Assembly (NCBI GenBank): GCA_016176465.1
Contig: JACOXD010000004.1
Span: forward strand, 114,119-178,118
Origin: Candidatus Daviesbacteria bacterium
GTDB lineage: Bacteria > Patescibacteriota > Microgenomatia > Daviesbacterales > UBA10151
Reading direction: 5' to 3'
Length of the DNA stretch: 64,000 nucleotides
The position numbers and the translations under genes were made by a program. Position 1 is the first letter of the stretch. Each line of letters starts with the position of its first letter. The notes under the pieces are model-generated. The model was not told where the DNA came from. It did not search any database and saw nothing but the letters and a program-made list of their open reading frames with translations. Of this stretch, positions 5,449-55,715 are shown in pieces.

Positions 5449-6597
5449 ATGAAACTACTTCATTTTTCTGATATTCACATTGGTATGGAAAATTATGCAA
5501 AGCTAGACCCTCAAACTGGACTATCTACTAGATTACTTGATTTTTTTAAAACTTTTGATTTTATAGTGGAAACTGCTTTTGAAAAAGAAGTTGATGCGGT
5601 AGTTTTTGCAGGAGATGCTTATAAAACTAGGGACCCAAATCCAACTCAACAACGAGGCTTTGGAGAGAGAATTAGAAAATTGGCTAAAAAAATTCCAGTT
5701 GTTTTAGTGGTAGGAAACCATGACACTCCAAATGCAGAGGGTAAAGCAAATACTTTAGATATTTACTCCGCTTTGGAAATAGATAATGTCTGGGTTTCAA
5801 GAGTTCCAGAGCTTCTAGAGATTCCAACAAAATCTGGAAATTTACAGATTGTTACTCTTCCTTGGCTTCACAAAAATGATTACAAAACTATTGGAGAAAA
5901 ATTACGTTTACTCTATGATAAAATTCAAAAAAACTCCCCTGCCATATTTTTATCACATGCTGAGGTAATTGGAGCTGAATATGGAAGTGAAAAAGGAATG
6001 ACTATTGCAAATGATGTAACAATTCCTTTGTCAATTTTGCAGGAAAAAAAGCTATCTTATGTCGCACTCGGACACATCCACAAACACCAAGTTTTATCTA
6101 AAGACCCATTAGTTGTATATGCAGGTTCTCCTCATAGGATTGATTTTGGTGAGGAAAAAGAAGAAAAAGGAATTTGTTTGGTTACCATCGATGATGTCAT
6201 TCCCGCGGAAGCGGGAATCCAAAAAAATAGATCCCCGATCAAGTCGGGGATGACATTCCCCGCCACATTCCAATTTACTAAAACTCCTTGTCGAGAGTTT
6301 CTCACCATCATTGTCAATCTAAAAGGGTCTGACCCTAACCCAACTCAAACTATTTTAAATGAGATTGGCAAACAAACTATTAATGAAAAAGTTGTAAAAG
6401 TAATTATTAATATTCCGGCAGAAATATCTGGTGAAATTGAAATGGATAAAATTAAAAAGGCTTTAAACGCTGCACACTACATTGCAGGAATCTCAAGAAA
6501 TGTTGAGAGAAAAGAAAGGATAATTATTGAAACAAAAGGAGTTGAAACTCTTTCTCCAATCCAGGCTTTAGGCAAAAAAATTTACTCCTCTTCATAA
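5449..6597 (+). CDS. sbcD: SbcD/Mre11-family nuclease. It carries an in-frame GC-rich hairpin-element insertion at about 6195-6270.
   Basis: MKLLHFSDIHIG, VVFAGDAYKTRDP, VVLVVGNHDTP and GHIHKHQ are calcineurin-like phosphoesterase motifs typical of SbcD. The segment IPAEAGIQKNRSPIKSGMTFPATFQ is encoded by two GC-rich inverted repeats. Confidence 0.75.
   Translation: MKLLHFSDIHIGMENYAKLDPQTGLSTRLLDFFKTFDFIVETAFEKEVDAVVFAGDAYKTRDPNPTQQRGFGERIRKLAKKIPVVLVVGNHDTPNAEGKANTLDIYSALEIDNVWVSRVPELLEIPTKSGNLQIVTLPWLHKNDYKTIGEKLRLLYDKIQKNSPAIFLSHAEVIGAEYGSEKGMTIANDVTIPLSILQEKKLSYVALGHIHKHQVLSKDPLVVYAGSPHRIDFGEEKEEKGICLVTIDDVIPAEAGIQKNRSPIKSGMTFPATFQFTKTPCREFLTIIVNLKGSDPNPTQTILNEIGKQTINEKVVKVIINIPAEISGEIEMDKIKKALNAAHYIAGISRNVERKERIIIETKGVETLSPIQALGKKIYSSS
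6195..6270. repeat. Pair of GC-rich hairpins (TCATTCCCGC-GGAA-GCGGGAATC and ATCCCCGA-TCAAG-TCGGGGATGAC) inserted in frame in sbcD
   Basis: Perfect inverted repeats of 8-9 bp. The same two hairpins, in the same relative order and in the same orientation with respect to the coding strand, occur at 7075-7176 inside the RT gene. A related ATTCCCG...CGGGAATGACA hairpin is at 26298-26345 in murB. Confidence 0.6.
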
Positions 6598-6628: not shown

Positions 6629-7441
6629 CTAGAAAATTAACTTTTGCCTTAATTTAAAACTGTTTGCATGACTTAAATAACCTAAATAAGATTGAAGTGG
6701 CCGATTAAAATTCTCTGATCCTAATTCTTTTAATTTTCTAAAAATTCTTCTTTTTGTTTCTGTTCTAGGCAATCTATAGTGGAGCAAAACAATATATCCT
6801 AAAAAATCAATTCCCCAATCAAGCTTTCTTAGTACAATTTTTTTAGGATGCAACTCAAGTTTTAGATGATCTTTTAGGAATTCACTGATCTGATCTATTA
6901 ATTTAGTATGATAGACTAGTCTATTAGAACTTAATAAAATTAAAAAATCATCAGCATATCTTAAATAATACTTAACTTTTAATTTGTGCTTGATAAATTG
7001 ATCTAACTCATTCATGTAAATATTAGCAAAGATTTGGGAAGTTAAATTACCTAGAGGAATACCCTTACATCCTTTGTCATCCCCGACCCATTTCGCCGAA
7101 GCGGGAGCGAGGCGAGCCTGATCGGGGATCCATGAATATTGTCTGTTTATTATATTCCCGCTTCTGCGGGAATGACATGTACAGAAACTGCTAATTACTT
7201 GTTTTAGTAACCAGGTAATACTCTCATTTGGATCATTAACATAAAAAGAAAAATAATCTCCGTGTCTGTATGTTTTACTCTTTAACATTTCATAAAGACT
7301 AAAAAGATTGTCCTCTAAGTTTCTTTCAAAAGCTTGAATATCAGCTCGTTTCTTTTTTCCTTTTCTAAACTCATTCCATGCTTGAAACAAATTATCTATC
7401 ACACTGCCTGATTTTAGCCTTGACATACCAATTTTTACCAA
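6629..7441 (-). CDS. Reverse transcriptase (group II intron-like or retron-like, 270 aa). The fingers region is replaced by GC-rich hairpin-element sequence, so it is probably inactive.
   Basis: An RT0-like N-terminus (DNLFQAWNEFRKGKKKRADIQAFERNLEDNLFSLYEMLKSKTYRHGDYFSFYVNDP) is followed by RT motifs: GIPLGNLTSQIFANIYMNELD (motifs 3-4), YLRYADDFLIL (motif 5, YADD) and GIDFLGYIV (motif 7). The expected K.R.I...DR...HA block is absent. Two GC-rich palindromes (7075-7132, 7153-7176) occupy that position. Confidence 0.7.
   Translation of the reverse strand: MVKIGMSRLKSGSVIDNLFQAWNEFRKGKKKRADIQAFERNLEDNLFSLYEMLKSKTYRHGDYFSFYVNDPNESITWLLKQVISSFCTCHSRRSGNIINRQYSWIPDQARLAPASAKWVGDDKGCKGIPLGNLTSQIFANIYMNELDQFIKHKLKVKYYLRYADDFLILLSSNRLVYHTKLIDQISEFLKDHLKLELHPKKIVLRKLDWGIDFLGYIVLLHYRLPRTETKRRIFRKLKELGSENFNRPLQSYLGYLSHANSFKLRQKLIF
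7075..7176. repeat. Pair of GC-rich hairpins (TGTCATCCCCGAC...GATCGGGGATCC and ATTCCCGC-TTCT-GCGGGAATGACA) inside the RT ORF
   Basis: See 6195-6270. This copy is the reverse complement of the sbcD copy, with a larger loop (CGCCGAAGCGGGAGCGAGGCGAG) in the first hairpin. Confidence 0.6.
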
Positions 7442-7553: not shown

Positions 7554-7982
7554 ATGGAAAAAAAGAAATTAAAAAAAGCTGTGATTTTTATTTTTTTAAA
7601 AGATAGAAAAGTCTTAGTAGAAAAGCGGATAAGAGATGCAGAAAAAATATTGAAAAATCAACTTATTTTTCCAGGAGGAGGTTTGGAAGAAAAAGATTTC
7701 GATGATCTAGAAGTTGCGCTGAAACGAGAGATTTTTGAAGAACTCGGAGTATCCGCTTCGAAATTTTCACAATTAGCAAAAGGGTTGAAAATTATTAGTG
7801 CCGGTAAAGATGCCAGTTTACATCCATTTATTATTGAAGCTTGGGAAAATGAAATTCCTGAAAAAATTTTAGATAAAGATGTTCCTCTTTTTTGGGTGGA
7901 TATAGAAGTTATGCTAGAATCCAAAATTGCTCCAACTAAAAAAATAGCAGAATTGGTAAAAGACTATTTAGAAAATGTATGA
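7554..7982 (+). CDS. NUDIX hydrolase
   Basis: A Nudix box FPGGGLEEKDFDDLEVALKREIFEELGV (GGx5Ex7REuxEExGu). A 4-nt overlap (ATGA) couples it to the sbcC start. Confidence 0.65.
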   Translation: MEKKKLKKAVIFIFLKDRKVLVEKRIRDAEKILKNQLIFPGGGLEEKDFDDLEVALKREIFEELGVSASKFSQLAKGLKIISAGKDASLHPFIIEAWENEIPEKILDKDVPLFWVDIEVMLESKIAPTKKIAELVKDYLENV

Positions 7983-10179
7983 TTCCTGTTTTACTGAAAC
8001 TATCTAATTTTACAAGCTATGGAGAAAAAGCGCCTGAATTAAATTTTACAAAATTTAAGCTCGCTGCAATTTCCGGTCCTAATGGTGCTGGTAAATCTTC
8101 ACTTCTTGATGCAATAACATGGTGTCTTTGGGGAACCTCAAGAGCTGGGGACTCATCAGATGAGTTGGTTAGGCTAGGGAGCGATAAAATGTTTGTGCAG
8201 TTTAGTTTTGAACTTGACGGAAATCTTTATACTGTTAAAAGAGCAAGATCTAAAAAAAGCGGTGGAAATACTAGCTTAGAGGTTTGGTCTGGAACAGAGA
8301 AAAAGCCAGAAACACACAATTTAACAGAAGGGACAATTAAAGCGAGCCAGCAAAAAATAATTGATACGCTACACTTAAGTTTTGAAACTTTTACCAACTC
8401 CTCTTTTTTGCGACAGGGTCATGCTGATGAGTTTACTACCAAAGGTCCAACAGATAGAAAAAGAATCTTAGCTAAGAAAAAATAAAAGAAGCGGAGATTA
8501 AATTAACACTTTTGGACTATCAACTTCTGGAAATAGAAGCAGAGCTTTCTTTAAAAAAAGATCGGGAAAAAAATTTTAGTCAAATCCAAAACGAGGTAAA
8601 TTCAGCTAAAAAAGGGGTTTTAGAGATCGAAAGTTTAATAAAAACAATTGAGGAGGAAAAACAATCTATACAGGTAAAGGTCAGTACCTTACTTGAATCC
8701 AAAAAACGCTTTGAGGATTTAAACAAAGAGATTGAGGATTTAAAACTGCAAATTAAGTTAAAGGAAAATACGAAGGAGGAATACCAGCTAATTTTAGATC
8801 AAAAGCAAGTTATTGAGAAAAATTATCAAATGTTACAGAAGTTACAAGAGAAGAAAAAAACTTTGGATAACAAAAGATCACATTTAATAAAACTTAAAGA
8901 TGAGTTGGTTTTGATAGAAAAACAAATTAATGAAAGAGAGGACAAAAGGAAACAAACTATTGCCCATTTAGAAATAGAAGGTAAGGAATTTGAAACAAAA
9001 AATGAACAATTAAAACTTCAAAATGAAAAACTAAGTAAAGAAAAAACCCTATGCCCTACTTGTAATCAACCTATTAGCGGAGAAAAAAACAGGGAAATAA
9101 TTTTAAATAATAAAAAACAAATTGAAGAAAATAACGAAAAACTAAAGGATTTAAGGCAAAAAATTGAAAAATATAAAGTGGTTATTTTGCCAGAATATCA
9201 ACTGGCCAAGGGAAAAGATATGGAGGTTAAAAAATTAGAAGAGGAAACTAAAGAATATTTTGAAACAACCAAAACCCTTTTAGAATTAGATAAGTACTCC
9301 CAAGCATATATGAAACTACAGCAAGCAGAAGTTGCTGTTAAAACCCACCAAGAAACTCTAATTGATTTAGAGAAAATATATAAGATAAAAAGTAAGGATT
9401 TAGAAAAATCCCAAAACTTTAAGGAAAACCTGGATAAGTTTTCAAAGACGTTAGAGGAAATTGAGGAAAAATTAGAAGGCAAGATGGAAGTTAAAAAAGA
9501 ACTCTCCCAAAAGGTTTTAGATCTCTCAGGAAGAGCTGGTGAAGCAAAACAATTAATAGATAGAACCATCCAAATAGAAAATTTATTCAACTTGAAAAAG
9601 AAAGAGAAAAATAAATTAACTAAAGAAAAAGAAATATTTGAGGAGTTAAGCTTAGCTTTTGGTAAAAGAGGCATTCAGGCAATGATTATTGAGGCAGCTA
9701 TTCCAGAAATTGAGGATGAAGCAAATAGGCTACTTAATAAATTAACTGAAGGCAGGATGAAGGTTCGCTTTGAAACTCAAAAAGAAACAAAAACTAAAGT
9801 TCAAACTAGTGAGGGAAAAGTTCATGCTTTAGTTGAGACTTTAGATATCATCATCTCAGATGAAATGGGTGAGAGAAATTATGATCTATATTCAGGAGGA
9901 GAAACTTTTCGGGTCAATTTTGCAATAAGATTGGCAATCTCCAAATTATTAACTCATCGAGCTGGAGCAAAGTTACAATTTTTAATTATTGATGAAGGAT
10001 TTGGTACTCAAGATGCAACAGGTAGAGCAAGATTAATAGAAGTAATTGATGCTATTAAAGATGATTTTGAGAAAATTTTAATTATTACTCATCTTGAGGA
10101 GTTAAAAGACGAGTTTCCGGTAAGAATTGAGGTTTCAAAAGATGCTTCAGGATCCACTTTTGAAATGGTCGGCGCTTAA
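7979..10179 (+). CDS. sbcC: SbcC/Rad50-family ATPase, split into two ORFs (7979..8485 and 8512..10179) by a -1 frame break at an A-run (8477-8485)
   Basis: N-terminal ORF: Walker A GPNGAGKSSLLDAITWCL. C-terminal ORF: a long coiled coil, a zinc-hook CPTC, the ABC signature LSGGETFRVNFAIRLA, and Walker B/D-loop LIIDEGFGTQD. A -1 shift after AAA (8480-8482) reads ...RILAKKK-IKEAEIKLTLLDYQLL..., which fuses both parts collinearly. The second ORF otherwise starts at TTG. Confidence 0.7.
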
Positions 10180-21946: not shown

Positions 21947-23575
21947 TTAATATTCACCCATTCCAGGCATACCTCCAGGAGGTCCGCCAGCTGGCGGAGG
22001 GGGTTCTGGTTGATCTGTTATAAGCACATTTGTTGACATTACCATGATAGCAACAGATGAAGCATTTTGCAGTGCAGTCCTGGTTACTTTAACAGGATCA
22101 ATAATTCCTGCCTTGACCAAATCTTTTAATTTTCCATCATTGACATCTATTCCTAAATTCCCTGATGCTTCTAGTACTTTAGCTAATGCTACTCCCTCAT
22201 CTAAGCCTGCATTTTGGATTAACCTTCTAAAAGGCTGTTCAATTGCTTTTTTAACTATCTCTACTCCTACTTTCTCCTCATCCAATGCAACTTTTAAAGC
22301 ATCTAATGTCTTAGCTACTCTTAGCAAAGCTATCTCTCCTCCAGCAACTATGCCTTCCTCAATAGCAGCCTTGGTTGCAGCAACAGCATCTATTACTCTT
22401 TCTTTCTTCTCCTTCATCTCAAGCTCTGTGGCAGCTCCGACATTAATCACTGCTACACCACCTGTTAGTTTAGCGAGTCTCTCTTGCAGTTTTTCTTTAT
22501 CAAATTCAGAATCAGAACTTTCAATTTCTCTCCTGATTTGAGCAATTCTAGCCTCAATTTTCCCCTTAACTCCTTTACCATCTACAATTAGAGTATTATC
22601 TTTATCCGATGTCACTCTTGCGGCTCTACCCAAATCATCAACCTCTATTGATTCAAATTTTTTACCGGTATCTTCGGAAATTACAGTTCCCCCTGTTAAA
22701 ATAGCAATATCTTCTAACATCTCTTTTCTCCTATCCCCAAACCCGGGTGCTCCAACTGCTAATACATTTATAGTTCCTCTTAATTTATTAACAATAAGCA
22801 AAGCTAATGCTTCACTTTCTACTTCATCAGCAATAATTACCAAGTTTTTAGAAACTTGGACAAATTTTTCTAAGAAAGGTACTAAATCTGAGGCAGCGGA
22901 GATTTTTTTATCAGTAATTAAAATATGTACATCCTCAATTGATGATTCCATCTTATCTGAATCAGTTACAAAATAAGGAGAAGCAAAACCTTTATCAAAC
23001 TCCATCCCTTCTTTATAATCAACGCTCAATTCTAAAGTTTTTCCCTCCTCAACTGTAATTACCCCATCTTTACCTACTTTAGCAATAGCTTCAGAAATTA
23101 ACTGCCCAATTTGGCTATCTTGAGCAGAGATAGTGGCTACTTGAGTGTATTCTTCCTGGGTAGTAAGTTTTTTACTCATTTTTCGAAGCTCTGAAACTAA
23201 AGTATTAATTGCCAGCTCAATTCCCCGCCTTAATATCATAGGATTTGCGCCTGCTTGAATATTTTTTAAGCCTTCAGAAACAATAGCTTGAGCTAAAATA
23301 GTAGCTGTAGTTGTTCCATCTCCTGCTACATCATTAGTTTTAGAAGCTGCTTCTTTAATAAGCTGAGCTCCCATATTCTCAAATGGATCTTCAAGTTCTA
23401 TCTCTTTAGCAACAGTTACTCCATCATGTACTACATTAGGAGCTCCCCATTTTTTATCCAAAGCTACATTTCTACCCTTAGGTCCTAGCGTTGAGGCCAC
23501 AGCATCTGTTAGGGTATTAATACCTTTAAGTAGTTTTTCTCTAGCGCTACTATCAAATAATAATATTTTAGCCAT
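21947..23575 (-). CDS. groEL: Chaperonin GroEL (Cpn60)
   Basis: MAKILLFD...[13 protein letters not shown]...[13 protein letters not shown]..., the apical and equatorial signatures, and a C-terminal Gly/Pro/Met-rich tail. Confidence 0.9.
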
Positions 23576-23578: not shown

Positions 23579-24007
23579 TTATTTTTCAGAACCAGGCAGA
23601 AGGGTTTCTTCCATACTAGATTTTACATCTTGCCCTGTTCCAGCTATAGGAAATTCCCAACCGATTCCAGGATGTTTAGGTGCTCCCTCAATTTTTGGTC
23701 TTTTTCCTACTTCTGTTCCTGCAGCTGTCCTAGCTAACTCCCTCTCATCATCTAAAACTGCTTCCGGATCAGCTATTAATTTCCATCGTTCTCTTGCCTC
23801 ATCAAGTACTGGGTTTGAACCTACCACACCAACTGAATCTAATAAATCACCTATTCTTATGGCTAAACTTTTAACTAACTCATTAGCGACTCCTTCAAAC
23901 TCCAAAACACCTCCCAGTGTATTTTTTTCACCACTTCTAGCCAAAGACCAGGCCGACCTAGCAAGAGTATCAGCTGTATATGCTATATCCATCATTTGTT
24001 CATTCAT
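23579..24007 (-). CDS. Hypothetical protein inserted between groES and groEL, translationally coupled to groEL
   Basis: 142 aa with no recognisable motif. Its stop is 3 nt before the groEL start. Its GC content is higher than that of the flanks. Confidence 0.4.
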   Translation of the reverse strand: MNEQMMDIAYTADTLARSAWSLARSGEKNTLGGVLEFEGVANELVKSLAIRIGDLLDSVGVVGSNPVLDEARERWKLIADPEAVLDDERELARTAAGTEVGKRPKIEGAPKHPGIGWEFPIAGTGQDVKSSMEETLLPGSEK

Positions 24008-24100
24008 ATTTATTCTAAAACTCCCATTAAATCATCAAACAGATCCTTCGCTACTCTCAGGATGACAATTTGATTTGAGAAATTATACTCAAATTGTTAT

Positions 24101-24430
24101 CTACTCCAAAATAGCCATCAGATCGTCGAACTTAACGAGCTTGTACTCCTTTCCTCCTACTTTAATCTCATCTCCACCCCATTTTTTAAAAACTACTTTA
24201 TCTCCCACCTTAACTGGTGCAACCATTACTTTGCCATTTTCCAAAATTAAATCATCACCAACAGCTACCACCACTCCTTGAGCGGGTTTTTCTTGAGCTG
24301 ATTCTGGTAGATAGATGCCTGATGCAGTTTGAGTATCTGCAGCTGATGGCTCAATTAGAGCATATCCCATTAAGGGGCGAAGATTAACTTTAGTAGCATT
24401 ACTTGCTTTATTATTTTTTTGTTTAACCAT
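24101..24430 (-). CDS. groES: Co-chaperonin GroES (Cpn10)
   Basis: VNLRPLMGYALIEP...ASGIYLPESAQEKPAQGVVVAVG...KVGDKVVFKKWGG shows typical GroES mobile-loop and roof motifs. Confidence 0.85.
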   Translation of the reverse strand: MVKQKNNKASNATKVNLRPLMGYALIEPSAADTQTASGIYLPESAQEKPAQGVVVAVGDDLILENGKVMVAPVKVGDKVVFKKWGGDEIKVGGKEYKLVKFDDLMAILE

Positions 24431-24602: not shown

Positions 24603-24755
24603 TATGTCTATCCAGGTTTTAAATATCTATTCATTTAAGCTAGGGGAGAATCCTAATAAAGAATCTATCTTAACTGAAATAAAACAAGCTTTATCTCAGG
24701 CTAAAGAAAGTTTTTTAAGTTTTCTAACATATGCATTCAAAATTGAACTGCGATA
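24603..24755 (+). CDS. Unannotated small ORF (50 aa) with a strong Shine-Dalgarno sequence
   Basis: AGAAAGGAGGAAATATG gives a perfect AAGGAGG with 6-nt spacing. The ORF reads MSIQVLNIYSFKLGENPNKESILTEIKQALSQAKESFLSFLTYAFKIELR*. It is convergent with, and overlaps by about 60 nt, the end of ORF 24696..25592. It was below the ORF-track length cut-off. Confidence 0.35.
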
Positions 24756-25592
24756 ATCCTTAGGTAAAAAGTATAGCGCTCCATTACTAATCCGCTCTAA
24801 TCCTTGAGGTTTACCCATATATCTTATCTGTAGCCATCTAGCCATAGTTTCTAAAGCTTTTAAAGTATTTTCTATTATGTATCTATTTTGGGAACTTTTT
24901 TTCTTTAGATCCAAAATAGGCAATACTTGATACTTACTACCACTACTTGTTATCCAGTTAGGTAAGTACTTAAAAGCCCAATTATTTTCTGCTAGAAAGC
25001 GAGAATATATATTGTTCTTTTGGTATAAAATCCGCATCTGTAAAACTTCATGTGCAACATAGATATCTTTATTTAACTGGACTAAATTATCTTCATCGAG
25101 TATTATATTTGTACATATCTTTCCAATAGCTTTTTTTCTAGTATACCCTTTTTTCCTTCGTAGTCCAAGCAAATTAAGTAAAAAGATTAGAAGCAATCTG
25201 GAAAACCAGACACTTTTACTAGACGTGATAATAAATAAATCAATGTCATCTTTCTTCCCGCTATTTCCAATTGCTAGTCCTCCAGATATTCCAATTAATT
25301 TTAAAGTGGGGATTAATTTTAGAAAATACAAAATTAAATTTATTTTTTTTAGATATTTTTTAGATATTTTTTCTTTTTGCAACCTTAATCTAACTATTTT
25401 TTTTCTTTTTTTTAAAAAAAAGTATTGTTTATCTTCATCTACTTTTCCTTTTTTCACTAGTTTTTGCAAAATCTTATCAATTTGTTTTAAAGTGCCTTTT
25501 TTCTCTATTAGCCACTTATGAATCTCCCAAGCTTTAAGGGGGTAATCAAAAATATCAGAATAGATTAAAGTCTTTAAAATTGCTTTCTCCAT
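24696..25592 (-). CDS. Hypothetical protein, possibly a nucleotidyltransferase-fold protein
   Basis: GISGGLAIGNSGKKDDIDLFIITS resembles the GS...D.D motif of the Pol-beta-like NTase fold. The rest is Lys-rich and unassigned. Confidence 0.35.
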   Translation of the reverse strand: MEKAILKTLIYSDIFDYPLKAWEIHKWLIEKKGTLKQIDKILQKLVKKGKVDEDKQYFFLKKRKKIVRLRLQKEKISKKYLKKINLILYFLKLIPTLKLIGISGGLAIGNSGKKDDIDLFIITSSKSVWFSRLLLIFLLNLLGLRRKKGYTRKKAIGKICTNIILDEDNLVQLNKDIYVAHEVLQMRILYQKNNIYSRFLAENNWAFKYLPNWITSSGSKYQVLPILDLKKKSSQNRYIIENTLKALETMARWLQIRYMGKPQGLERISNGALYFLPKDYRSSILNAYVRKLKKLSLA

Positions 25593-25602: not shown

Positions 25603-25687
25603 TAACACATTATGTCATTCTGATACGTCAGTGAAGAATCTAATTAGATCCTTCTCCCCTCCGGGGGCCCGCACTAAGGATGACAAA
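25603..25687. repeat. Bipartite GC-rich hairpin element (module X, gtcattctga...gaagaatc, plus module Y, gatccttc...cccgcact.aggatgacaaa), intergenic copy upstream of murB
   Basis: Module Y at 25637-25686 is about 85% identical to 38161-38204 (inside valS) and is reverse-complementary to 60746-60783. Module X recurs at 38206-38246 and 60790-60817. A short Y-like copy is at 24043-24070. Confidence 0.6.
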
Positions 25688-25704: not shown

Positions 25705-26847
25705 ATGAATGGCTTAGATAGCAAATTCAAAGAAAAAATTGTTAAAGATTTACCCTTTTCAAATCTAACAACCTTAAAAATTGGTGGACCTATCAAGTAT
25801 TTTTTTGAAGCTAAAACTGAGGATGAGTTAATAGAAGCTGTTAAATTTGCTCAAAAAAATTCTCTTCCCTATTTAGTAATTGGTGGCGGATCTAATCTTT
25901 TGGTATCTGATAAAGGATATGATGGACTAGTTATAAAAAATTCCATAACTGGAATAGCGAGGGGTGACAGCGAGGAGAGGTCTTGGCGCGTACCCGCAGC
26001 GATCAGGCAACGACCTGAGAGTGAGGATACACGACGAGAAACCGAGCTGGCAGGACCCGGAGCAATTTTGAAGGTAAAAGGCGGGACTGTTTTACAAGAT
26101 TTAGTGGATTATTCTATAAAAAATGGTTTATCTGGTTTACAAAAGATGACTGGGATCCCAGGAACTATAGCTGGGGCAGTTTATGGAAATGCAGGTGCTT
26201 ACGGCCAAACTATTTCTGACCATATAGTAAAGGTGACCATTCTAAAACCAACAACAGGGTCATCTTTCAACTTAATTGGAGGATCCAGTCAGATAGATTC
26301 CCGCTGGAGTTTACCCCGTACCTCGATACGGGACGGGAATGACAATACTGAAATTAAGACCCTAACCAAAGACGCATGTGGATTTGATTACCGCCATAGT
26401 TCCTTTAAAGAAAACAAATCCATTATTTTAGAAGTAATTTTTGAGCTGGAACAGGGAAATCCTAAAACTTTAAAGAAAGAATCTGAAGAAATTTTAGAAA
26501 AAAGATTAGTTAAATATCCAAAAGGAATTAAATGTCCTGGTAGTTTTTTTATGAATATAGTTACTGAAAATTTGCCAAAGGATGTTTTAGAAAAAATTCC
26601 CCAAAATATGATTATGTATGGAAAAATCCCTGCAGGAGCACTTTTAGAAGAAGTTGGAGCAAAAGGAGATTCAATTGATGGAATAGAAATAGCTCCTTAT
26701 CATGCTAATTTATTTGTTAATAAAGGTGGTGGTAAGGCTGAAGATTTTTACAATTTAGCTAAAAAATATTTTCAAAAAGTTAAAGAAAAATTTGGAATTA
26801 CCCTTGAACCAGAAGTCCAATTAATTAATTTACCAGCCTTAAATTAA
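25705..26847 (+). CDS. murB: UDP-N-acetylenolpyruvoylglucosamine reductase MurB, with in-frame insertions
   Basis: An FAD-binding N-terminus (LTTLKIGGPIKYFFEAKTEDELIEAVKFAQKNSLPYLVIGGGSNLL) and a MurB C-terminal domain. A GC-rich segment of about 105 nt at 25955-26063 (ARGDSEERSWRVPAAIRQRPESEDTRRETELAGPG) interrupts conserved blocks, and it is homologous to an insert in tsaD. Confidence 0.75.
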   Translation: MNGLDSKFKEKIVKDLPFSNLTTLKIGGPIKYFFEAKTEDELIEAVKFAQKNSLPYLVIGGGSNLLVSDKGYDGLVIKNSITGIARGDSEERSWRVPAAIRQRPESEDTRRETELAGPGAILKVKGGTVLQDLVDYSIKNGLSGLQKMTGIPGTIAGAVYGNAGAYGQTISDHIVKVTILKPTTGSSFNLIGGSSQIDSRWSLPRTSIRDGNDNTEIKTLTKDACGFDYRHSSFKENKSIILEVIFELEQGNPKTLKKESEEILEKRLVKYPKGIKCPGSFFMNIVTENLPKDVLEKIPQNMIMYGKIPAGALLEEVGAKGDSIDGIEIAPYHANLFVNKGGGKAEDFYNLAKKYFQKVKEKFGITLEPEVQLINLPALN

Positions 26848-34232: not shown

Positions 34233-35396
34233 ATGAATAAATTTAAATTAATTTTAGGGATTGAGACATCTTGTGATGAAACAGCAGCTGCAATACTAAA
34301 AAAGGATGAAGGTCAGATTACTATTTTATCTAATATTGTTGCCTCTTCAGCTAAATTACAAGAAAAATATGGAGGAATTATTCCAGAACAGGCTGCTAGA
34401 GAACAGATTAAAGCTATCATTCCTGTTATTACTGAAGCGCTTAAAAAGGCACGAGTAACAAGTGATAAGTTAGATGCCATAGCAGTTACCCAAGGACCTG
34501 GTTTAATAGGTTCCTTGCTAGTAGGGGTCGAAACAGCTAAAGTTTTAAGTTTAATTTGGGAAAAACCTTTAATTCCTATAAATCATTTATTAGGACATTT
34601 TTATGCAAATTGGATAGCGACGGAGGGTGACAGGGAGGAGAGATCTCGGCGCACCCCCGCAGCGAAGTTGTTACGAGACGAGGAGGTACGACGAGAAACC
34701 GAGCTGGCAGGACCCCCAAGCGTACCAGAGTTCCCCTATCTTGGACTTTTAGTCTCTGGTGGCCATACAGATTTAGTTTTATTTAAAAATCACAATGAAT
34801 ATGACTACCTAGGTGGAACAAGGGATGATGCAGCTGGTGAATGCTTTGATAAATGCGCCAGGTTACTGGGATTTCCCTATCCTGGTGGACCAAAGATTTC
34901 TAAACTGGCAGAGAATGGAAATCCCAAGGCTTTTAAATTCCCAAGACCTATGGAAAAATCTAATGATTTTGATTTTTCTTTTTCCGGCTTAAAGACTTCT
35001 TTTGCTAATTTAGTTAATAGTTCAGAGTTTAAAGTTCAGAGTAAAAAATCAATAAGCTACAAACTCAAAGCGAAGCGTACTCATAACTTAGTCTCTGACT
35101 TAGCTGCATCTTTGGAACAAGCCATTATTGATTCACTCATTACTAAAACCATTAAAGCTGCTCAAAAATATAACATTAAACAAATCATTATTGCAGGAGG
35201 AGTTGCTGCTAATAAAAAACTAATTTCAGAGTTACAATTAGCTATTAACAATGAACTATTAACTATTAAACTCTTTGTTCCTCCACCCTATCTTTGTACA
35301 GATAACGCTGCAATGATTGCCTCCCGTGCTTTTTTTGAAAAAGAGATTAAAGATCCTATATCTTTACAAGCAGATCCAAATTTATCCTTAGCTTGA
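34233..35396 (+). CDS. tsaD: tRNA N6-adenosine threonylcarbamoyltransferase TsaD (Kae1/Gcp family), with a 35-aa in-frame insertion
   Basis: LGIETSCDETAAAI, the HLLGH metal-binding motif, and LVSGGHT. A GC-rich segment at 34612-34722 (ATEGDREERSRRTPAAKLLRDEEVRRETELAGPP) lies between the two conserved motifs and is homologous to the murB insert. Confidence 0.8.
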   Translation: MNKFKLILGIETSCDETAAAILKKDEGQITILSNIVASSAKLQEKYGGIIPEQAAREQIKAIIPVITEALKKARVTSDKLDAIAVTQGPGLIGSLLVGVETAKVLSLIWEKPLIPINHLLGHFYANWIATEGDREERSRRTPAAKLLRDEEVRRETELAGPPSVPEFPYLGLLVSGGHTDLVLFKNHNEYDYLGGTRDDAAGECFDKCARLLGFPYPGGPKISKLAENGNPKAFKFPRPMEKSNDFDFSFSGLKTSFANLVNSSEFKVQSKKSISYKLKAKRTHNLVSDLAASLEQAIIDSLITKTIKAAQKYNIKQIIIAGGVAANKKLISELQLAINNELLTIKLFVPPPYLCTDNAAMIASRAFFEKEIKDPISLQADPNLSLA

Positions 35397-36302: not shown

Positions 36303-38550
36303 AACTCAAAATACTGAGGAAAAATGGTACAAGTTTTGGGAAAATCAGGGACTTTTTAAAGCAGACCCTGATTCTTCCAAGCCTTCATATTCTATTTTAA
36401 TGCCTCCTCCTAATTTAACTGGTGAACCACACGCTGGGCACACAATCCAACATTTAATAATGGACGGCTTAGCCAGATTTAAAAGAATGCAAGGATTTGA
36501 TGTTTTATTTCAACCCGGTGTTGATCATGCAGGGATTCAATTTGAAGGAACTTTAAATAAGTTATTAGAAAAAGAAGGTTTAAGGAAGATAAGTTTGGGT
36601 AGAGAGAAATGGATGGAAAGAGCCTGGCAATTTAAAGGTGAGATTTATAAGTCTTTCCATAAAACCTGGAGAGCTATGGGGATTTCAGCTGACTGGAAAA
36701 GAGAAGTTTTTACTCTAGATCCTAAAATGCAGCGAGCTGTTTTAGAGGAATTTAAAACTTTTTGGGAACAAGATCTTTTATACAAAGGAGCATATATTGT
36801 CCAGTGGTGCCCTAAAGATGCTACTGCTATTGAGGATTTGGAAATGGAGTATGAGGAAAGGACTGAAAAGCTCTACTATGTTAAATATAAAGTAGCAGGA
36901 GACCCTAGATATCCTAACGAAGAATACATTGTGGTAGCTACTGCTCGTCCAGAAACAATTTACGCCGATGTCGCTATTGCTGTTCATCCTGAATCTAGAT
37001 ACAAAGATTATGCAGGAAGAGATGCTTATAAACCTCTCGCTCCTAGTGAAAAACTCGTAGATAGAGAGATTAAAATAATTACAGATGATAGGGTTAATAA
37101 AGAATTTGGAACAGGTGCTTTAAAAATAACTCCTGGCCATGATCCTCTAGATTATAAGATAGGCAAAGACCACAACTTATCTATCTTACATGCTGTTGAT
37201 AAAGCAGGAGGGATGACAGATTTGGCAGGCGATCTTAAAGGATTATCTGTTTCAGAAGCTCGAGAAAAAACAGCTGAGATGTTAGACAAACAAGGATCTA
37301 TTGACCACATTGAGGAATACACTCATTCAGTGCCAGTTTGTGAAAGGTGTAAATCTACTATTGAACCCTTAGTTTCCGAGGAATGGTTTGTAAAAATGAA
37401 GCCTCTTGCCCAAAAAGCCCTAAAATCCCTAAAGGATATCAACTTTTTTCCAAAGAATTTTGAAAAAGTAATTGCTGATTGGTTAGAAGAAATTCATGAC
37501 TGGTCAATTTCTAGGTCTTTGTGGTGGGGACACAGAATCCCTGTTTGGTATTGTCAAAAGTGTAATTCAAACCACGAAGTAGGAAAAGATAAAGATATGG
37601 TTATATCCTTGACTCACCCAGAGCAAAATTGCCAAACTTGTAAGCTAAATCAATGGGTCCAGGATGATCAGATTTTAGATACCTGGTTTTCATCAGGTCT
37701 TTGGCCCATGGCAACCTTAGGCTGGCCCTCCTCCGCTGAAGCTTCGGAGGGTAAACCAGACGAGTGGTTAAACATGAAGAAATATTACCCATATGATTTT
37801 GAAATATCTGCTCCAGAAATTAAATTTTTATGGATTGCTAGAATGATTATGCTGGGGGTTTGGTTTGCTCAGGATATTCCTTTTAAAAATATGTTTTTTA
37901 CAGGGACACTGCGAGACCTTCAAGGAAGAAAGTTTTCTAAGTCTTTAGGAAATGGGGTTTTTCCTTTGCCTTTAATTGATACTTGGGGAGTGGATGCTTA
38001 TAGAATGGCTATTTTTGGCTTTGCAGCTCCTGCAAGAGATGGAAGGGCAAGCAGACAAACTTTGGATGAAAGGTGTAAGAACTTTAGAAATTTTGTAACA
38101 AAGCTTAAAAACATTGCTAAGTTTATAGTTGATTTAAAACCAAAAGGAACGCAGTCATTAGATCCTTCCTCCTTAAAGGGACCCGCACTTCAGGATGACC
38201 AAACAGAGAATGTCATTCTGAGCGCCAGAGAAGAATCCAATCCAGAAGATATTGAAATTCTTGAGAAACTTAATAAAACAATTAAAAATGTAACAAAAGA
38301 ACTAAATAAGTTTAACTTTCATTTAGCCTCTGATTTTATTTATGAATTTATTTGGCATGAATTTGCAGATAAATATATTGAATCATCTAAAAATAGAAGA
38401 AAAGATGCTCAACCAGTTTTAGAATATATCTTTAAAACTTCTTTAGAGCTTCTTCATCCTTTCATGCCCTTTATTACGGAGGAAATTTGGCAAAGGCTCC
38501 CACATGCGGAAAAATCCATAATGATCGCCAAGTGGCATGAAGTTAAATAA
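36295..38550 (+). CDS. valS: Valyl-tRNA synthetase, short form (751 aa, no C-terminal coiled coil), carrying a hairpin-element insertion at 38161-38247
   Basis: The HIGH motif PPPNLTGEPHAGH, an editing domain, KMSKS KFSKSLGN, and an anticodon-binding domain. The segment SLDPSSLKGPALQDDQTENVILSAREESNPEDIE is encoded by the GC-rich bipartite element. Confidence 0.8.
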   Translation: MDKTQNTEEKWYKFWENQGLFKADPDSSKPSYSILMPPPNLTGEPHAGHTIQHLIMDGLARFKRMQGFDVLFQPGVDHAGIQFEGTLNKLLEKEGLRKISLGREKWMERAWQFKGEIYKSFHKTWRAMGISADWKREVFTLDPKMQRAVLEEFKTFWEQDLLYKGAYIVQWCPKDATAIEDLEMEYEERTEKLYYVKYKVAGDPRYPNEEYIVVATARPETIYADVAIAVHPESRYKDYAGRDAYKPLAPSEKLVDREIKIITDDRVNKEFGTGALKITPGHDPLDYKIGKDHNLSILHAVDKAGGMTDLAGDLKGLSVSEAREKTAEMLDKQGSIDHIEEYTHSVPVCERCKSTIEPLVSEEWFVKMKPLAQKALKSLKDINFFPKNFEKVIADWLEEIHDWSISRSLWWGHRIPVWYCQKCNSNHEVGKDKDMVISLTHPEQNCQTCKLNQWVQDDQILDTWFSSGLWPMATLGWPSSAEASEGKPDEWLNMKKYYPYDFEISAPEIKFLWIARMIMLGVWFAQDIPFKNMFFTGTLRDLQGRKFSKSLGNGVFPLPLIDTWGVDAYRMAIFGFAAPARDGRASRQTLDERCKNFRNFVTKLKNIAKFIVDLKPKGTQSLDPSSLKGPALQDDQTENVILSAREESNPEDIEILEKLNKTIKNVTKELNKFNFHLASDFIYEFIWHEFADKYIESSKNRRKDAQPVLEYIFKTSLELLHPFMPFITEEIWQRLPHAEKSIMIAKWHEVK
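38161..38247. repeat. Bipartite GC-rich hairpin element (Y+X modules) inserted in frame in valS
   Basis: GATCCTTCCTCCTTAAAGGGACCCGCACTTCAGGATGACCAAACA plus GAGAATGTCATTCTGAGCGCCAGAGAAGAATCC. These are homologous to 25603-25687 and inverted relative to 60745-60818. Confidence 0.6.
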
Positions 38551-39067
38551 TCTCCTTTTTATATTTAATCCTTTGCTTAAAAAGGTTTTCTCTAAACCCC
38601 CCTTCATTAATAAATTTTTTCTTTAAAGCTTCTATTTGTCTTGAGAGTAAAAAAGTTTCCATTTGGCAAAAAGTCAAAAGCATATTAGCTGCCTCTTCGG
38701 GATTATGAGGAAGATTTGGGGTGTTAGGAATATTAGGCTTAACCCAAACAGCCCTAAACTCCCTAAAAACTCTAATCCTAGGATCGCTCTTATCCCAAAT
38801 CCTTAAGTTCCTCTGTCTTAGGAAATCCTCAAAATCGGCTGTTAATTCTTTAAAAGATCCATGGGCAACACCACAAAGCTTTATATAACTTTCCAGGCTT
38901 TGCATAGTATATCCTTCAACTATGTTTTGCTTTCCAGACCTAGCTGCCTGCTCCATCTGATCAACAGTTCTGGACTTAGGGTTTATCCAGCGCGTTACAA
39001 ACTGAACAGTTAGATCATGAATAACAGTAGCTAGAATATATGTAGAGAGATTTTTGTACCCTTCCAC
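38543..39067 (-). CDS. Four-helix-bundle protein (TIGR02436-like, the family often found in 23S rRNA intervening sequences)
   Basis: MEQAARSGKQNIVEGYTMQSLESYIKLCGVAHGSFKEL matches the Q..RA..SI..NIAEG........F...A.GS..E core. Confidence 0.45.
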   Translation of the reverse strand: MEGYKNLSTYILATVIHDLTVQFVTRWINPKSRTVDQMEQAARSGKQNIVEGYTMQSLESYIKLCGVAHGSFKELTADFEDFLRQRNLRIWDKSDPRIRVFREFRAVWVKPNIPNTPNLPHNPEEAANMLLTFCQMETFLLSRQIEALKKKFINEGGFRENLFKQRIKYKKEII

Positions 39068-45073: not shown

Positions 45074-46334
45074 TTTTTAATTCTAGCATGCTAAAACCCC
45101 AGACTAAAAAGAACAATCTTTGACCTTGGGGAAGCGTTAAAAAATAATGGTCAAACATTCCCAAAATTAATATACTAAACCAAGTAAAAATTAAAACATT
45201 TTTTAAAAATACAGGCTTAATCTTTAAAAGTTTATAAAGAGGAAAAAATATTAAAATAGAAAATCCTAAAAAACCTACAATTCCAGTTTCTGCTAAGCTT
45301 AATAAGAAAATATTATGTACAGGTTGCAAAAAACGAGTTTGACCAGCTATTACCGAAGATGCCGACGTTGCATTAATAAAATTATTAAGTCCGATTCCAA
45401 ATATCGGGGAGTTAAAAAAATGAATTAGAGAAACTTCTGCTAATTGTTCTCTGCGGATTAATGAGATGTAATCAAAACTAAATGTAGAAAAAAACCTAGT
45501 AAATAAAAAGGGAGAGGCAAGGGCAAGTAGTATTAAAATCAAAAGTAATCTTTTTTTTCTGAAAAAGAGAATAATTTGTAAGAAAAAAATAGCTAGAGCG
45601 ATTCTTGAAAAAGTCAGTATGATAAGCAAAGCTCCAAGGACTTGAATAGAAAAATTTATTTTAGATTTAACCAATAAATTTATTATTGGCAAAGTAATTA
45701 CTAAAAAACCAGCAAAGACATTAGGATGAGGGAAAGTACCATATGGTCGCAAAAAAATCTGATCAAAGTAATTAAACTTTGCAATAGAGGGAGTTGATAG
45801 GTTAAATTCTCTCTCTCCTAATATCCAAAACCCTAAAGAGTGGGATAAAAAAAATTGCCCTAACCCTAAAAAACACTCAAGCAAAATGGAACTACTCAAA
45901 CCCAAGAAAAGATTTTTTTTAATATCTGATAGATTTTTACTTGCGATATAAATTCCTAAAAAGGATGCTAAAAATAGCTGCTCCAAACGAAATAAACTAG
46001 CTCCTAAATTACTGGTATTAAATAAAGATAAAACTTGCGTGAGAAGGAAAAAGAGAGTCAAAAGTAGCGCTTTAGAGTTAATTTTTGATTTATTTCTGGA
46101 AGAAACTATATTTAAAAGAAAACAAAATAGCAAACTTAAAATTAAAAGATCCCAAAAAAAGATTGTTGGGGATAGATAATCAATTTTTAAAGAATAAATA
46201 TAACTAAAATCAAACCAAAAGTGTCTGCCAAGCTGAGTGGGAAGAAAAAATATAATTAAAAAAAATAAATAGCTTTCTAATTTTGCAAAAAAATTAAGAT
46301 CCCTTGGAAGTAACTTTTTTAGAGGATTTTTCAT
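45021..46334 (-). CDS. O-antigen ligase-like (Wzy_C) polytopic membrane protein
   Basis: 437 aa with about 10-12 TM helices and a central loop containing the R...H-like Wzy_C pattern (RIALAIFF, FDHYFLTL). Confidence 0.45.
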   Translation of the reverse strand: MKNPLKKLLPRDLNFFAKLESYLFFLIIFFLPTQLGRHFWFDFSYIYSLKIDYLSPTIFFWDLLILSLLFCFLLNIVSSRNKSKINSKALLLTLFFLLTQVLSLFNTSNLGASLFRLEQLFLASFLGIYIASKNLSDIKKNLFLGLSSSILLECFLGLGQFFLSHSLGFWILGEREFNLSTPSIAKFNYFDQIFLRPYGTFPHPNVFAGFLVITLPIINLLVKSKINFSIQVLGALLIILTFSRIALAIFFLQIILFFRKKRLLLILILLALASPFLFTRFFSTFSFDYISLIRREQLAEVSLIHFFNSPIFGIGLNNFINATSASSVIAGQTRFLQPVHNIFLLSLAETGIVGFLGFSILIFFPLYKLLKIKPVFLKNVLIFTWFSILILGMFDHYFLTLPQGQRLFFLVWGFSMLELKSGNFKKSISANKLPNTG

Positions 46335-46839
46335 TTACTTTTTCCCCTGGGGCAGGCTTAATAATTATATGACGGTTAATCCCTTCACCTAAACTTTCTG
46401 ATTCTACACCTTCAGTGCCAGAAATTGTTAGATGAATTACTCTTCTTTCCCAAGCAGGCATTGGTTCAAGCTCCATTTGCTCACTTGTTTCTATCACTTT
46501 TTGCGCCCAAGCTCTAGCCTTATGAGCTAAATCTTCCTCTCTTGATTTTCTCCAATTAGAAACATCAATGACCACTTTTTTAAATTCTTCTCCTTCTTTG
46601 AGGGATTTTGCTAAAATTTGATTAACTATTAGCTGAAGGGCAGATAAAGTCTCTCCATGCCTGCCTATTAATTTACCAGCATCGATAATCTCAATAGAGG
46701 CAGCTATATAATCGGCGCTTTCTTCAACCTCAAATGAACCCTCAAGCGAGAGTAAACCTAATATATTTTCTAAAATCTCAGAAACTTTATTTTCGTAGAA
46801 AACCTTATTCTCCATGAGAACCTCCTTTTCCATTAACAC
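46294..46839 (-). CDS. jag: Jag/KhpB-like RNA-binding protein (KH + R3H domains)
   Basis: Conserved position immediately downstream of yidC. KH-like IAASIEIIDAGKLIGRHGETLSALQLI and R3H-like LEPMPAWERRVIH. Confidence 0.6.
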   Translation of the reverse strand: MLMEKEVLMENKVFYENKVSEILENILGLLSLEGSFEVEESADYIAASIEIIDAGKLIGRHGETLSALQLIVNQILAKSLKEGEEFKKVVIDVSNWRKSREEDLAHKARAWAQKVIETSEQMELEPMPAWERRVIHLTISGTEGVESESLGEGINRHIIIKPAPGEKVNEKSSKKVTSKGS

Positions 46840-47665
46840 CCCTTAATCTATTAATAATCCCATCCATTCCACCCCATCCTGAAAGTAGGTACTGTTGGAT
46901 TATGCCGATTAATGTAAACATATTCCAGTAAACAGAAAGGCCGGTCGGGAATTGCCAGGAGAAAAAACCAATCATAACCGGCATCATATAAACCATTTGC
47001 CCCTGGATAGCACTCATAGCATCCTCAGCTTTCTCTTTCTCTTTCATCTCTTTAGGTAAATCTGAAGGATATTTTTTAACAGGCTTTGGCATAATCATTT
47101 TTGATTGAATAAAGGTCAATACCGCTGTTAAGAGTGGGATCAAAAGCAAGAGGTAACCGTGTTGGACAAACTCAGCAGGCTTATAAGTTAGGTTGATCCC
47201 TAAAAAATTAGGATCAGGGGGGGAAGATAACTTCATGACAGGAAAATATAGCATTTCGTTAATTTGTTTTAAACCACTCGGACCGGAAAAAAAAGCAAAA
47301 ATCGCCTGATAAAGCGCGATTAGAATTGGAAACTGAATTAAAGTAGGCAGACACCCAGCAGCAGGATTGACCCCATGTTCTTTATATAACTGCATTTGGG
47401 CTTTGGCAAAAGCTTGTTTATCCCCTGCATGCTTTTTTTTAAGCTCATCCATATGAGGCTTTAAATCAGCCATTTTTTTAGCAGATTTTAATTGCCGAGA
47501 AATTGCCGGCCAAGTAACTAGCCTTATAAGTAAAGTTAAAATAATAATGGAAAATCCTAACGCTCCTGGGATTCCCAGGTATTGAAGTGTATTGATTAAA
47601 AATACCAACAAGTTAATTAAGGGAGCTAAAAAAACAGTATTGAATAAATCAAAAATTACCTGCAC
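46805..47665 (-). CDS. yidC: Membrane protein insertase YidC (short, Gram-positive/CPR type)
   Basis: The YidC/Oxa1 60-kDa-IMP core (GVNPAAGCLPTLIQFPILIALYQAI..., WQFPTGLSVYW). The order rpmH-rnpA-yidD-yidC-jag is conserved. Confidence 0.8.
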   Translation of the reverse strand: MQVIFDLFNTVFLAPLINLLVFLINTLQYLGIPGALGFSIIILTLLIRLVTWPAISRQLKSAKKMADLKPHMDELKKKHAGDKQAFAKAQMQLYKEHGVNPAAGCLPTLIQFPILIALYQAIFAFFSGPSGLKQINEMLYFPVMKLSSPPDPNFLGINLTYKPAEFVQHGYLLLLIPLLTAVLTFIQSKMIMPKPVKKYPSDLPKEMKEKEKAEDAMSAIQGQMVYMMPVMIGFFSWQFPTGLSVYWNMFTLIGIIQQYLLSGWGGMDGIINRLRGVNGKGGSHGE

Positions 47666-47874
47666 GAAATTATCCTCCTTAATCCTAAATAAACTCCTCT
47701 AATGCTGCCATACTCAGCAATCATTTGCTTTGTATACTGCGAACAAGTTGGGTAATTTCGACAACTTCCTCCCGGAGCAAAGTAAGATAAAACACCATGA
47801 TCAAATGAAAGGAATTTTTGGTAAAAATCAATTAGGGATAATAATATCTTGGACATTTTGTAAATCTTTAGCAA
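47656..47874 (-). CDS. yidD: Membrane protein insertion efficiency factor YidD
   Basis: CRNYPTCSQY...RCHP-like Cys motif (CRxxPTCSxY) in a 72-aa protein, in the conserved position. Confidence 0.7.
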   Translation of the reverse strand: MLKIYKMSKILLSLIDFYQKFLSFDHGVLSYFAPGGSCRNYPTCSQYTKQMIAEYGSIRGVYLGLRRIISCR

Positions 47875-48163
47875 CCAAAGTAGGATTTGCTTTTAAAATA
47901 TTGACTTTAGGCATGATAACTAAATTCAAATTTTTAATCAATAGCGGATAAGTTAGGTCAGTAGCGCTGAAAGCTAATCTTTTAGCCTTGTTTCGCTGTG
48001 TTGATTTAGGAAAGTATATTTTAGAAAGGGCAATTCCAATTAAGGGATTTTCATTTTCTCCGAGTCTAAAATTAAGTTTTAAATATTTTGTTTCTTTTTT
48101 ATCTCCTTTGGCTACCCACTTAAAACTTTTTGATAAATTTAGCCTTTTATTTTTAGGAAGCAT
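47828..48163 (-). CDS. rnpA: RNase P protein component RnpA
   Basis: A basic 111-aa protein with a KNKRLNLSKSFK RNR-like motif, located between rpmH and yidD. Confidence 0.7.
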   Translation of the reverse strand: MLPKNKRLNLSKSFKWVAKGDKKETKYLKLNFRLGENENPLIGIALSKIYFPKSTQRNKAKRLAFSATDLTYPLLIKNLNLVIMPKVNILKANPTLVAKDLQNVQDIIIPN

Positions 48164-48173
48164 AGGAAAAAGT

Positions 48174-48314
48174 TTAGATTGTTAAACGATGAGCACCTTT
48201 TAACCGTCTTCGTTTCAAAATTAACTGTCCGGTTTTAGAAGACATTCGAGCCCTAAATCCATGTTTTTTTTGGCGCTTAGCTTTTTTAGGCTGGTAGGTA
48301 CGTTTAGTAGACAT
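48174..48314 (-). CDS. rpmH: Ribosomal protein L34
   Basis: [46 protein letters not shown] is near-consensus L34. The longer track ORF (to 48401) is a spurious 5' extension through oriC sequence. Confidence 0.85.
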
Positions 48315-48401
48315 GGGGACAAGTATACTATACTTACCCGGGATACGAAATATGTAATATGAAATATGTTTACTTATTGTGTCTCGTATTCCGTATCTCA
48401 T

Positions 48402-50461: not shown

Positions 50462-50477
50462 CAGTAATCAATTAACA

Positions 50478-52656: not shown

Positions 52657-52657
52657 A

Positions 52658-55713: not shown

Positions 55714-55715
55714 TT

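Follow-up and report, generated by a model that had tools for sequence, protein, structure and literature searches.

Rickettsia palindromic elements (RPEs), as treated by Ogata and colleagues in 2000, are reportedly inserted in frame in many protein-coding genes of a small genome, housekeeping genes included, without destroying them; RPE-1 is said to measure approximately 100–150 bp and to occur in Rickettsia only. Much smaller hairpins, the cyanobacterial SDR repeats of 21–27 nt, were reportedly argued to be mobile by Elhai and colleagues in 2008. REP sequences and REPINs, which are associated with the Y1 transposases called RAYTs (TnpA-REP), carry a GTAG or GTGG tag, and the REPs are species-specific (PMC3116915; PMC2817692; PMC3479197; PMC8266576). 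A further superfamily of REPs, reported from five phyla, is recognized by a CGTC tag (often TGTC or CCTC), an A-T stem start and a short 3′ tail with the consensus CCA (Di Nocera, De Gregorio and Rocco, 2013, BMC Genomics 14:522, PMC3733652). Its members form inverted dimers and have no dedicated transposase, and the intragenic dimers add 20–30 aa to their host proteins, among which are tRNA synthetases. The families CGTC-1 to CGTC-4 have a perfect stem of 8–9 bp and a loop of 4–5 nt; CGTC-1 is equated with dRS3 of Neisseria and RPE-6 of Rickettsia, CGTC-4 with RPE-4, and the supplementary peptides of CGTC-1 include VIPAKAGI, SFPRKRES, and DSRFRGND (PMC3733652).

The stretch of DNA analysed here (the window; 64,000 nucleotides of a Candidatus Daviesbacteria contig) contains a family of such hairpins. 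The pattern GTCATYCT-N(5–35)-GAAGRATC matches seven times in the window and zero times in each of 100 dinucleotide-preserving shuffles, so that the similarity between copies, for which a previous sequence-only reading of this DNA had considered low-complexity runs as a trivial cause, rises above the shuffled background. All seven GTCATYCT octamers of the window fall within hairpin units, which are GC-rich islets in a sequence of approximately 34% GC. The sequence-only reading had described a bipartite element of about 85 bp, with modules X and Y, at four places. Copies are present near all four, with the one placed at 60745–60818 off by approximately 7–12 nt, and the occurrence of one repeated hairpin element both between genes and in frame within valS and ORF 59821–61098, with no stop codons, is borne out. 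However, there is no 85-bp module: the basic unit is a single hairpin of 25–39 nt, and X and Y are the same hairpin unit read on opposite strands, in variants with ATTCT (T-type) and ATCCT (C-type) stems.

The seven units comprise one solo unit and three inverted pairs. The solo unit, GTCATCCTGAGAGTAGCGAAGGATC (24042–24066, − strand), has one mismatch to the pan-bacterial consensus and lies between groES and ORF 23579–24007. The pair at 25614–25684, between the divergent ORF 24696–25592 and murB, joins tail-to-tail a T-type unit with the outer stem ATTCT/AGAAT on the left (25614–25640, + strand) and a C-type unit with the outer stem ATCCT/AGGAT on the right (25647–25684, − strand), whose inner hairpin (CCCC/GGGG) is long and which has the private core AGTGCGGGCCCC. 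In valS, the two units stand head-to-head, with a C-type unit on the left (38161–38199, − strand; inner stem CCTT/AAGG; peptide DPSSLKGPALQDD) and a T-type unit on the right (38212–38237, + strand; peptide VILSAREES). In ORF 59821–61098, a C-type unit (60757–60788, + strand; inner hairpin CCCGCC/GGCGGG; peptide VILTRLGGEGS) has a T-type unit as its tail-to-tail partner (60799–60825, − strand; inner hairpin GCC-GAA-GGC; peptide DSSPSAQND). The long Y modules at 25647–25684 and 38161–38199 have in common the inner core AGTGCGGGYCCC, of which no further copy was found in 2.77 Mb of fetched loci, and form a private subfamily whose inner stems differ by compensatory changes (CCCC/GGGG versus CCTT/AAGG).

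The proposal that a single bipartite unit changes its module order with its orientation does not agree with this arrangement. The pair at 60757–60825 repeats the arrangement of 25614–25684 as its reverse complement; in the valS pair, by contrast, the modules keep the same orientations and their order is swapped, which inversion of a rigid unit cannot yield. Since the valS pair is not derivable by inversion from the other two, the modules are independent units and not halves of a rigid element. In addition, three dimers of sister families, at 6196–6254, 7076–7176, and 26259–26343, were missed in the sequence-only reading; they bring at least six sister-family units to the window besides the seven of the GTCATYCT family.

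Each unit opens with a (T/C)GTC tag, which is unpaired. The outer stem begins with AT and holds a covarying Y/R pair; tandem G·A and an inner hairpin, which varies, lie inside it, and a short tail of the form C-Y closes the unit. In the canonical 25-mer, TGTCATYCTGAGCGNAGCGAAGRATCT, the successive elements are T, GTC, AT(Y)CT, GA, GC, GNA, GC, GA, AG(R)AT, C, and t; that is, a 5-bp outer stem, tandem G·A, a 2-bp inner stem, and a 3-nt loop, with GCGNAGC and its GNA triloop as the inner hairpin, which other units replace by a variable one. With its flanks, the consensus reads TGTCATYCTGA … GAAGRATC-YAAT. Among 187 units from 120 genomes, taken from the matches listed, the Y/R pair is T-A in 100, C-G in 78, and mismatched in nine; GTC is preceded by T in 68% and by C in 19% (the TGTC tag is present in six of the seven window units), GA occupies positions 9–10 in 85%, and the C that follows the closing AT is itself followed by T in 76% or C in 18%. 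The tails in the window (CTAAT, CCAAT, and CCACA) resemble CCA and are not identical to it. The AT…AT stem start is invariant, which is partly fixed by the search pattern and also holds in sister-family units that were found without it. Among the 25-mers, the inner pair is G-C in 48, A-T in 14, and C-G in two, and a GNA loop is present in 56 of 68. In the 33 distinct 25-mers, 93.9% of cells are paired and three pairs show changes on both sides; their covariation score was reached by none of 500 shuffles and collapsed in slid registers. G·T pairs are no more frequent than C·A pairs (four versus five). C(GNA)G triloops and tandem sheared G·A in a Y-GA-R context are hallmarks of DNA mini-hairpins with unusually high stability, for example d(GCGAAGC), and a structure with tandem G·A and a GNA triloop is proposed for d(TGTCATCCTGAGCGAAGCGAAGGATCT). 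The pairs fold as long hairpins (z = −3.6 and −4.4). A search of the window and of copy-rich loci against Rfam gave no match at gathering thresholds, and permissive E-values returned only generic miRNA and snoRNA hairpin noise. A reading of CUGA…GAAG as a hammerhead or k-turn was rejected, because the core is without CUGANGA and has no Rfam match.

When the outer pattern was searched for in 185,579 species genomes, at least 120 loci were found. The hosts among the matches listed include Chloroflexota, Acidobacteriota, Nitrospirota, Bacteroidota, Ignavibacteria, Omnitrophota, Saccharibacteria, Paceibacterota, Gracilibacteria, delta-proteobacteria, Clostridia, Spirochaetes, Verrucomicrobia, and others. 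With so many genomes, some matches to the outer pattern alone are expected by chance; however, nearly all matches share the canonical inner sequence, which the pattern did not demand. The canonical 25-mer is found in more than 15 bacterial phyla and, as an exact copy, in more than 120 IMG/VR contigs, which are considered genuine phage because the units sit among phage head genes; thus, the family is not specific to CPR bacteria, among which the sequence-only reading would have sought it. Plasmids of Planktothrix, Gloeothece, Nostoc, Hymenobacter, Phocaeicola, and Granulicella (cyanobacteria, Bacteroidota, and Acidobacteria) also carry the 25-mer, and repeat annotation is absent in all of these plasmid copies. 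Among the units of 243 loci, adjacent units are arranged tail-to-tail in 65 cases, head-to-head in 13, and head-to-tail in 11, with spacers of 2–89 nt, and these pair counts are undercounts in that partners of other families escape the search pattern. At four loci (L054, L089, L105, and L113), a 5′ half-unit (GTCATYCTGA.CG..) stands 3–8 nt before a complete unit that has the same orientation, which could be a footprint of the joining or replacement of units.

The location of the units relative to genes differs between the window and other genomes. Across diverse genomes, an ORF that is open for at least 60 codons on both sides surrounds only 10% of units, compared with 61% of random positions, which indicates classical extragenic repeat behaviour outside the Daviesbacteria genome. 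Convergent gaps are enriched there (30 of 92 extragenic sites, compared with 19% of all gaps) and divergent gaps are depleted, and, relative to the genes beside them, solo units are oriented without bias (16:13). The absence of an orientation bias, together with G·T pairs that do not exceed C·A pairs, argues against a strand-specific RNA motif. In the window, four of the seven units are within such an ORF, compared with 55% of random positions; units are not excluded from genes in the Daviesbacteria genome. When the sister families are considered as well, five of the seven window sites are intragenic, in valS, ORF 59821, murB, a metallophosphoesterase gene, and a reverse-transcriptase fragment. 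All five are in frame and without a stop, as would be expected if the inserts were translated and frame-breaking copies were purged by selection.

The valS insert encodes the peptide DPSSLKGPALQDDQTENVILSAREES and is located in a loop bounded by RNFxTKLxNIxxFI and a conserved DD(K/Q)xI. Among 120 ValRS orthologues, the commonest loop class has 15 aa, compared with 37 aa in the ValRS of the window, which accords with the expectation that the valS copy lengthens the protein; the loop is at least 24 aa long in 39 of the 120, and many orthologues are without an insert. Peptide footprints of five hairpin families, namely VILSEAKD … AQNDK, VIPSxxRNL, VIPAKAGIQ … WIPDQVGDDK, IASS.PRND-VIAS.AKQS, and HPELVSGS … MLKQVQHDD, are present in at least 28 of the 120. 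At the DNA level, the ValRS loop contains a tail-to-tail dimer of the GTCATYCT family in the relative L122, a canonical unit with a decayed partner in L123, a dimer of the ATTCCC and ATCCCC families in L324 (syntenic, 74% identity), and no hairpin in L121 (75% identity). Because the dimers are different or absent in these four relatives, the ValRS loop is a hot spot whose turnover is faster than approximately 25% protein divergence. Metagenomic ValRS loci, which are mostly approximately 40% identical and from other phyla, contained no units within ValRS; the hot spot therefore looks clade-specific. In an AlphaFold2 model of ValRS (mean pLDDT 84), residues 628–645 have pLDDT values below 50 and lie between the confident helices 587–613 and 650–671, and the insert is best read as a disordered surface loop that would be tolerated by the protein.

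Some features of the valS flanks may bear on the choice of site. Native valS codons CAG TCA TTA (38154–38159) form GTCATT directly to the left of the dimer; the T-type unit, 58 nt farther downstream, has GTCATT as its head as well (38212–38217), and the downstream HPDD/QDD codons of valS resemble the repeat head. Across four DNA sequences, these features are suggestive of a target-site preference for head-like sequence, or they are a coincidence. A 23S_rRNA_IVP-like gene for a four-helix bundle is located directly 3′ of valS on the opposite strand (38543–39067, − strand), and this arrangement is kept in both syntenic relatives (L121 5335–5727; L324 10222–10764).

In ORF 59821–61098, the insert encodes the peptide VILTRLGGEGSTKLDSSPSAQNDK, and the sequence-only reading put forward a gain of about 28 aa; the single, distant homologue found (35% identity) is 14 aa shorter in the insert region and contains no repeat peptides. 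The ORF follows a type IV secretion-like cluster and has a Cys-rich C-terminus (a weak zf-MYND match) and almost no homologues. The sister-family dimers are all tail-to-tail and lie in frame within ORFs. The dimer at 6196–6254, in frame in the metallophosphoesterase ORF 5449–6597, encodes VIPAEAGIQ…SGMT and is composed of GTCATTCCCGCGGAAGCGGGAATC (CGTC-1/dRS3 type, peptide VIPAEAGIQ) and, on the − strand, GTCATCCCCGACTTGATCGGGGATC. The dimer in murB (26259–26343) comprises a degenerate unit (26259–26285, + strand) and an ATTCCCG-type unit (26296–26343, − strand), is in frame, and follows residue 183 of MurB, a position at which solved MurB structures show nothing comparable. The dimer at 7076–7176 combines a ATCCCCGA-type and a ATTCCCGC-type unit with CGTC-1/dRS3-like stems in ORF 6629–7441 (− strand). 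Of the RVT_1 reverse-transcriptase domain, this ORF retains the C-terminal half alone (aa 123–218), immediately preceded by the dimer as aa 88–122, and it may be degraded or interrupted. The dimer-bearing metallophosphoesterase is SbcD-like and lies upstream of an SbcC/Rad50-like ATPase that is apparently split (7979–8485, N-terminal AAA_23; 8512–10179, C-terminal Walker B).

A second, unrelated repeat also occurs in frame in the window, at 25951–26065 in murB and 34611–34725 in tsaD, and at 1343–1433 in L121. It is GC-rich, approximately 110–115 nt long, and non-palindromic (DNA fold z of approximately 0). Between its copies in the window, identity is 77%; both contain the perfect 28-mer ACGACGAGAAACCGAGCTGGCAGGACCC and encode similar peptides (GD.EERS.R.PAA...RRETELAGP). 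The tsaD copy is also present in L121, and L324 has a hairpin dimer at the same TsaD position.

The remainder of the window contains ordinary housekeeping genes, the type IV secretion-like cluster, and a replication-origin region, as judged from Pfam. The cluster (52048–59490) includes a VirB4/TraG P-loop ATPase (55716–57497), a weak TraC-like match (57501–58271), and a PrgI-family ORF (58309–59490). The origin region (46294–51587) carries jag/khpB, yidC, and rnpA on the − strand, together with dnaA (48489–49820) and dnaN (50478–51587), and the cumulative GC skew has its minimum near 46–50 kb. C-type units are on the − strand at three sites to the left of the origin and on the + strand at one site to its right, which corresponds to the lagging-strand template at four of four sites; T-type units are opposite. 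A replication-strand bias relative to an origin near 48.3 kb was rejected, as only four sites are concerned and the sister dimers at 6196 and 7076 contradict it. Among other ORFs of the window, ORF 23579–24007 (− strand; 142 aa) has no Pfam match and separates groES (24101–24430) from groEL (21947–23575). ORF 61291–64000 (+ strand) has a proline-rich N-terminus and no Pfam match and runs past the end of the window, and its start is overlapped by ORF 61134–61547 (− strand), the last 45 aa of which match a nucleotidyltransferase domain.

Taken together, these observations are probably best explained by a non-autonomous palindromic mobile element of the REP type that is tolerated in surface loops. 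An enzyme acting in trans would copy or move the units by recognizing the folded single-stranded hairpin and its tag, and insertion would be favoured where hairpins of this kind, or sequences like them, are already present. In the gene-dense Daviesbacteria genome, the survivors would be the frame-preserving copies in surface loops, and surviving intragenic copies would be translated as disordered inserts of approximately 20–30 aa. We infer mobility from comparisons at approximately 75% amino-acid identity; it would be non-autonomous and effected in trans. Movement as folded single-stranded DNA is suggested by analogy with the REP/RAYT and IS200/IS605 systems and by the DNA-type loop motifs. 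Three results count against a mobile element. Pfam scans of nearly all ORFs of the 64-kb window revealed no transposase, Y1/HUH enzyme, or integrase; no gene family recurs beside the units in the 243 loci, in which clustering of 2,859 neighbouring ORFs as candidate mobilisers grouped only phage structural proteins; and no target-site duplication was seen. Furthermore, near-invariance across phyla, as seen in the 25-mer, is not usual among selfish REPs and could point to a function in the cell that is conserved, and the enrichment of convergent gaps also fits a role at transcript 3′ ends.

It is possible, though on balance doubtful, that the true mobile unit is the inverted pair of approximately 70–90 bp, comparable to a REPIN or a MITE, in line with the single mobile unit of the sequence-only reading, and that solo units are its decay products. 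The tail-to-tail arrangement prevails among adjacent units in the 243 loci and recurs in two of the three window pairs, the pairs form long hairpins, and their number is underestimated, all of which would fit this idea; the head-to-head pair in valS, the wide range of spacers, the free variation of partner families and inner hairpins within pairs, and the commonness of canonical solo units do not. The dimers also depart from MITEs in having neither a target-site duplication nor a related parent insertion sequence, and their flanks extend the palindrome by one base only (T…A). A retention of the hairpins mainly as functional RNA, for example as stabilisers of mRNA 3′ ends, attenuators, or translation pausers, with their spread being secondary, seems rather unlikely. 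Such roles have been reported for classical REPs, and they would suit stable hairpins that are mostly extragenic in other genomes and enriched in convergent gaps. On the contrary, the units have no U-tract, no Rfam family match, no preference for G·U over C·A, and no bias in orientation relative to transcription; in addition, the dimer at 25614–25684 lies between divergent genes and most window sites are within coding sequence. That the inserts are protein modules, selected because the peptide they encode has a function, is highly improbable: the frame is kept at every intragenic site and the ValRS loop is repeatedly occupied among orthologues, but the same DNA is also found in non-coding sequence and in both orientations and frames, unrelated peptides of different families occupy one ValRS loop, the insert has low pLDDT in the model, and many orthologues lack it.

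Compared with these alternatives, the REP-type mobile element tolerated in surface loops remains the preferred reading. It is also tempting to speculate, although we regard this as unlikely, that all (T/C)GTC-AT…AT-C hairpins are a single ancient element that crosses phyla and phages, of which the 25-mer is the most conserved form, and that they are spread with no dedicated transposase by a ubiquitous replication or repair activity that acts on stable mini-hairpins at the fork. In CPR bacteria, such an element would be a major source of lineage-specific protein loops, with hot spots in the ValRS anticodon domain and TsaD.

A mobile origin of the units would mean that one class of the lineage-specific insertions in housekeeping proteins of CPR bacteria stems from repeats and is not functional, which matters for annotation, alignment, phylogeny, and structure prediction. 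The hot spots with fast turnover, namely the ValRS and TsaD loops, would provide a natural system for catching insertion junctions in population metagenomes, and junctions caught in this manner would make the long-standing question of how CGTC-type REPs move directly testable. Searches of the literature with sequence and peptide strings returned only unrelated primer matches and found no paper that prints the sequence of the family, and no paper was found that links REPs or RPEs with Patescibacteria/CPR.

The nearest counterparts are the four systems described above. Similar to RPEs, the Daviesbacteria units are palindromic repeats that lie in frame within genes, the host ORF being kept and insert-free orthologues existing, and the high intragenic load in Daviesbacteria recalls that of Rickettsia. 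By contrast, the reported RPE-1 is approximately 100–150 bp long and Rickettsia-restricted, whereas the units described here measure 25–39 nt, have another sequence, and are members of a pan-bacterial family; RPE-4 and RPE-6 (CGTC-4 and CGTC-1) also encode peptides other than those of the GTCATYCT family. The units are like the REP/REPIN-RAYT system in that each is a short hairpin with a tag, that inverted doublets are able to form one longer hairpin, and that mobilisation is presumed to occur in trans via single-stranded DNA. They differ from it in their (T/C)GTC tag, in the absence of a RAYT from the 64-kb window, in a sequence that crosses phyla, and in their many intragenic copies. SDR repeats are likewise reported to be very small hairpins, and the 25-mer also occurs on cyanobacterial plasmids.

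The CGTC superfamily shows the strongest correspondence in the tag, the AT-initiated stem, the habit of forming inverted dimers, the lack of a dedicated transposase nearby, and the in-frame inserts of 20–30 aa. CGTC-1-type units are present in the window and its relatives, the CGTC-1 peptides VIPAKAGI and DSRFRGND recur in the window and in ValRS orthologues, and the CGTC-2 peptide RHSELVSGS (PMC3733652) corresponds to the HPELVSGS family of ValRS loops. However, the ATYCT-GA-…-GA-AGRAT family does not have the perfect 8–9 bp stem of CGTC-1 to CGTC-4; the string VILS is absent from the published peptide tables (PMC3733652), no CGTC family encodes VILSEAK, and the peptides of CGTC-2, CGTC-3, and CGTC-4 differ. 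Because its stem and peptides are unlike those of CGTC-1 to CGTC-4, the GTCATYCT family is best filed as an additional, fifth family of this known superfamily, one that is very conserved and for which Daviesbacteria is a new host clade; it may coincide with one of the cyanobacterial SDR families and so may already have a name. Consequently, a superfamily that had been reported in five phyla, and whose newly recognized family is seen in more than 15 phyla, phages, and CPR bacteria, is extended to the CPR, to many more phyla, and to phages.
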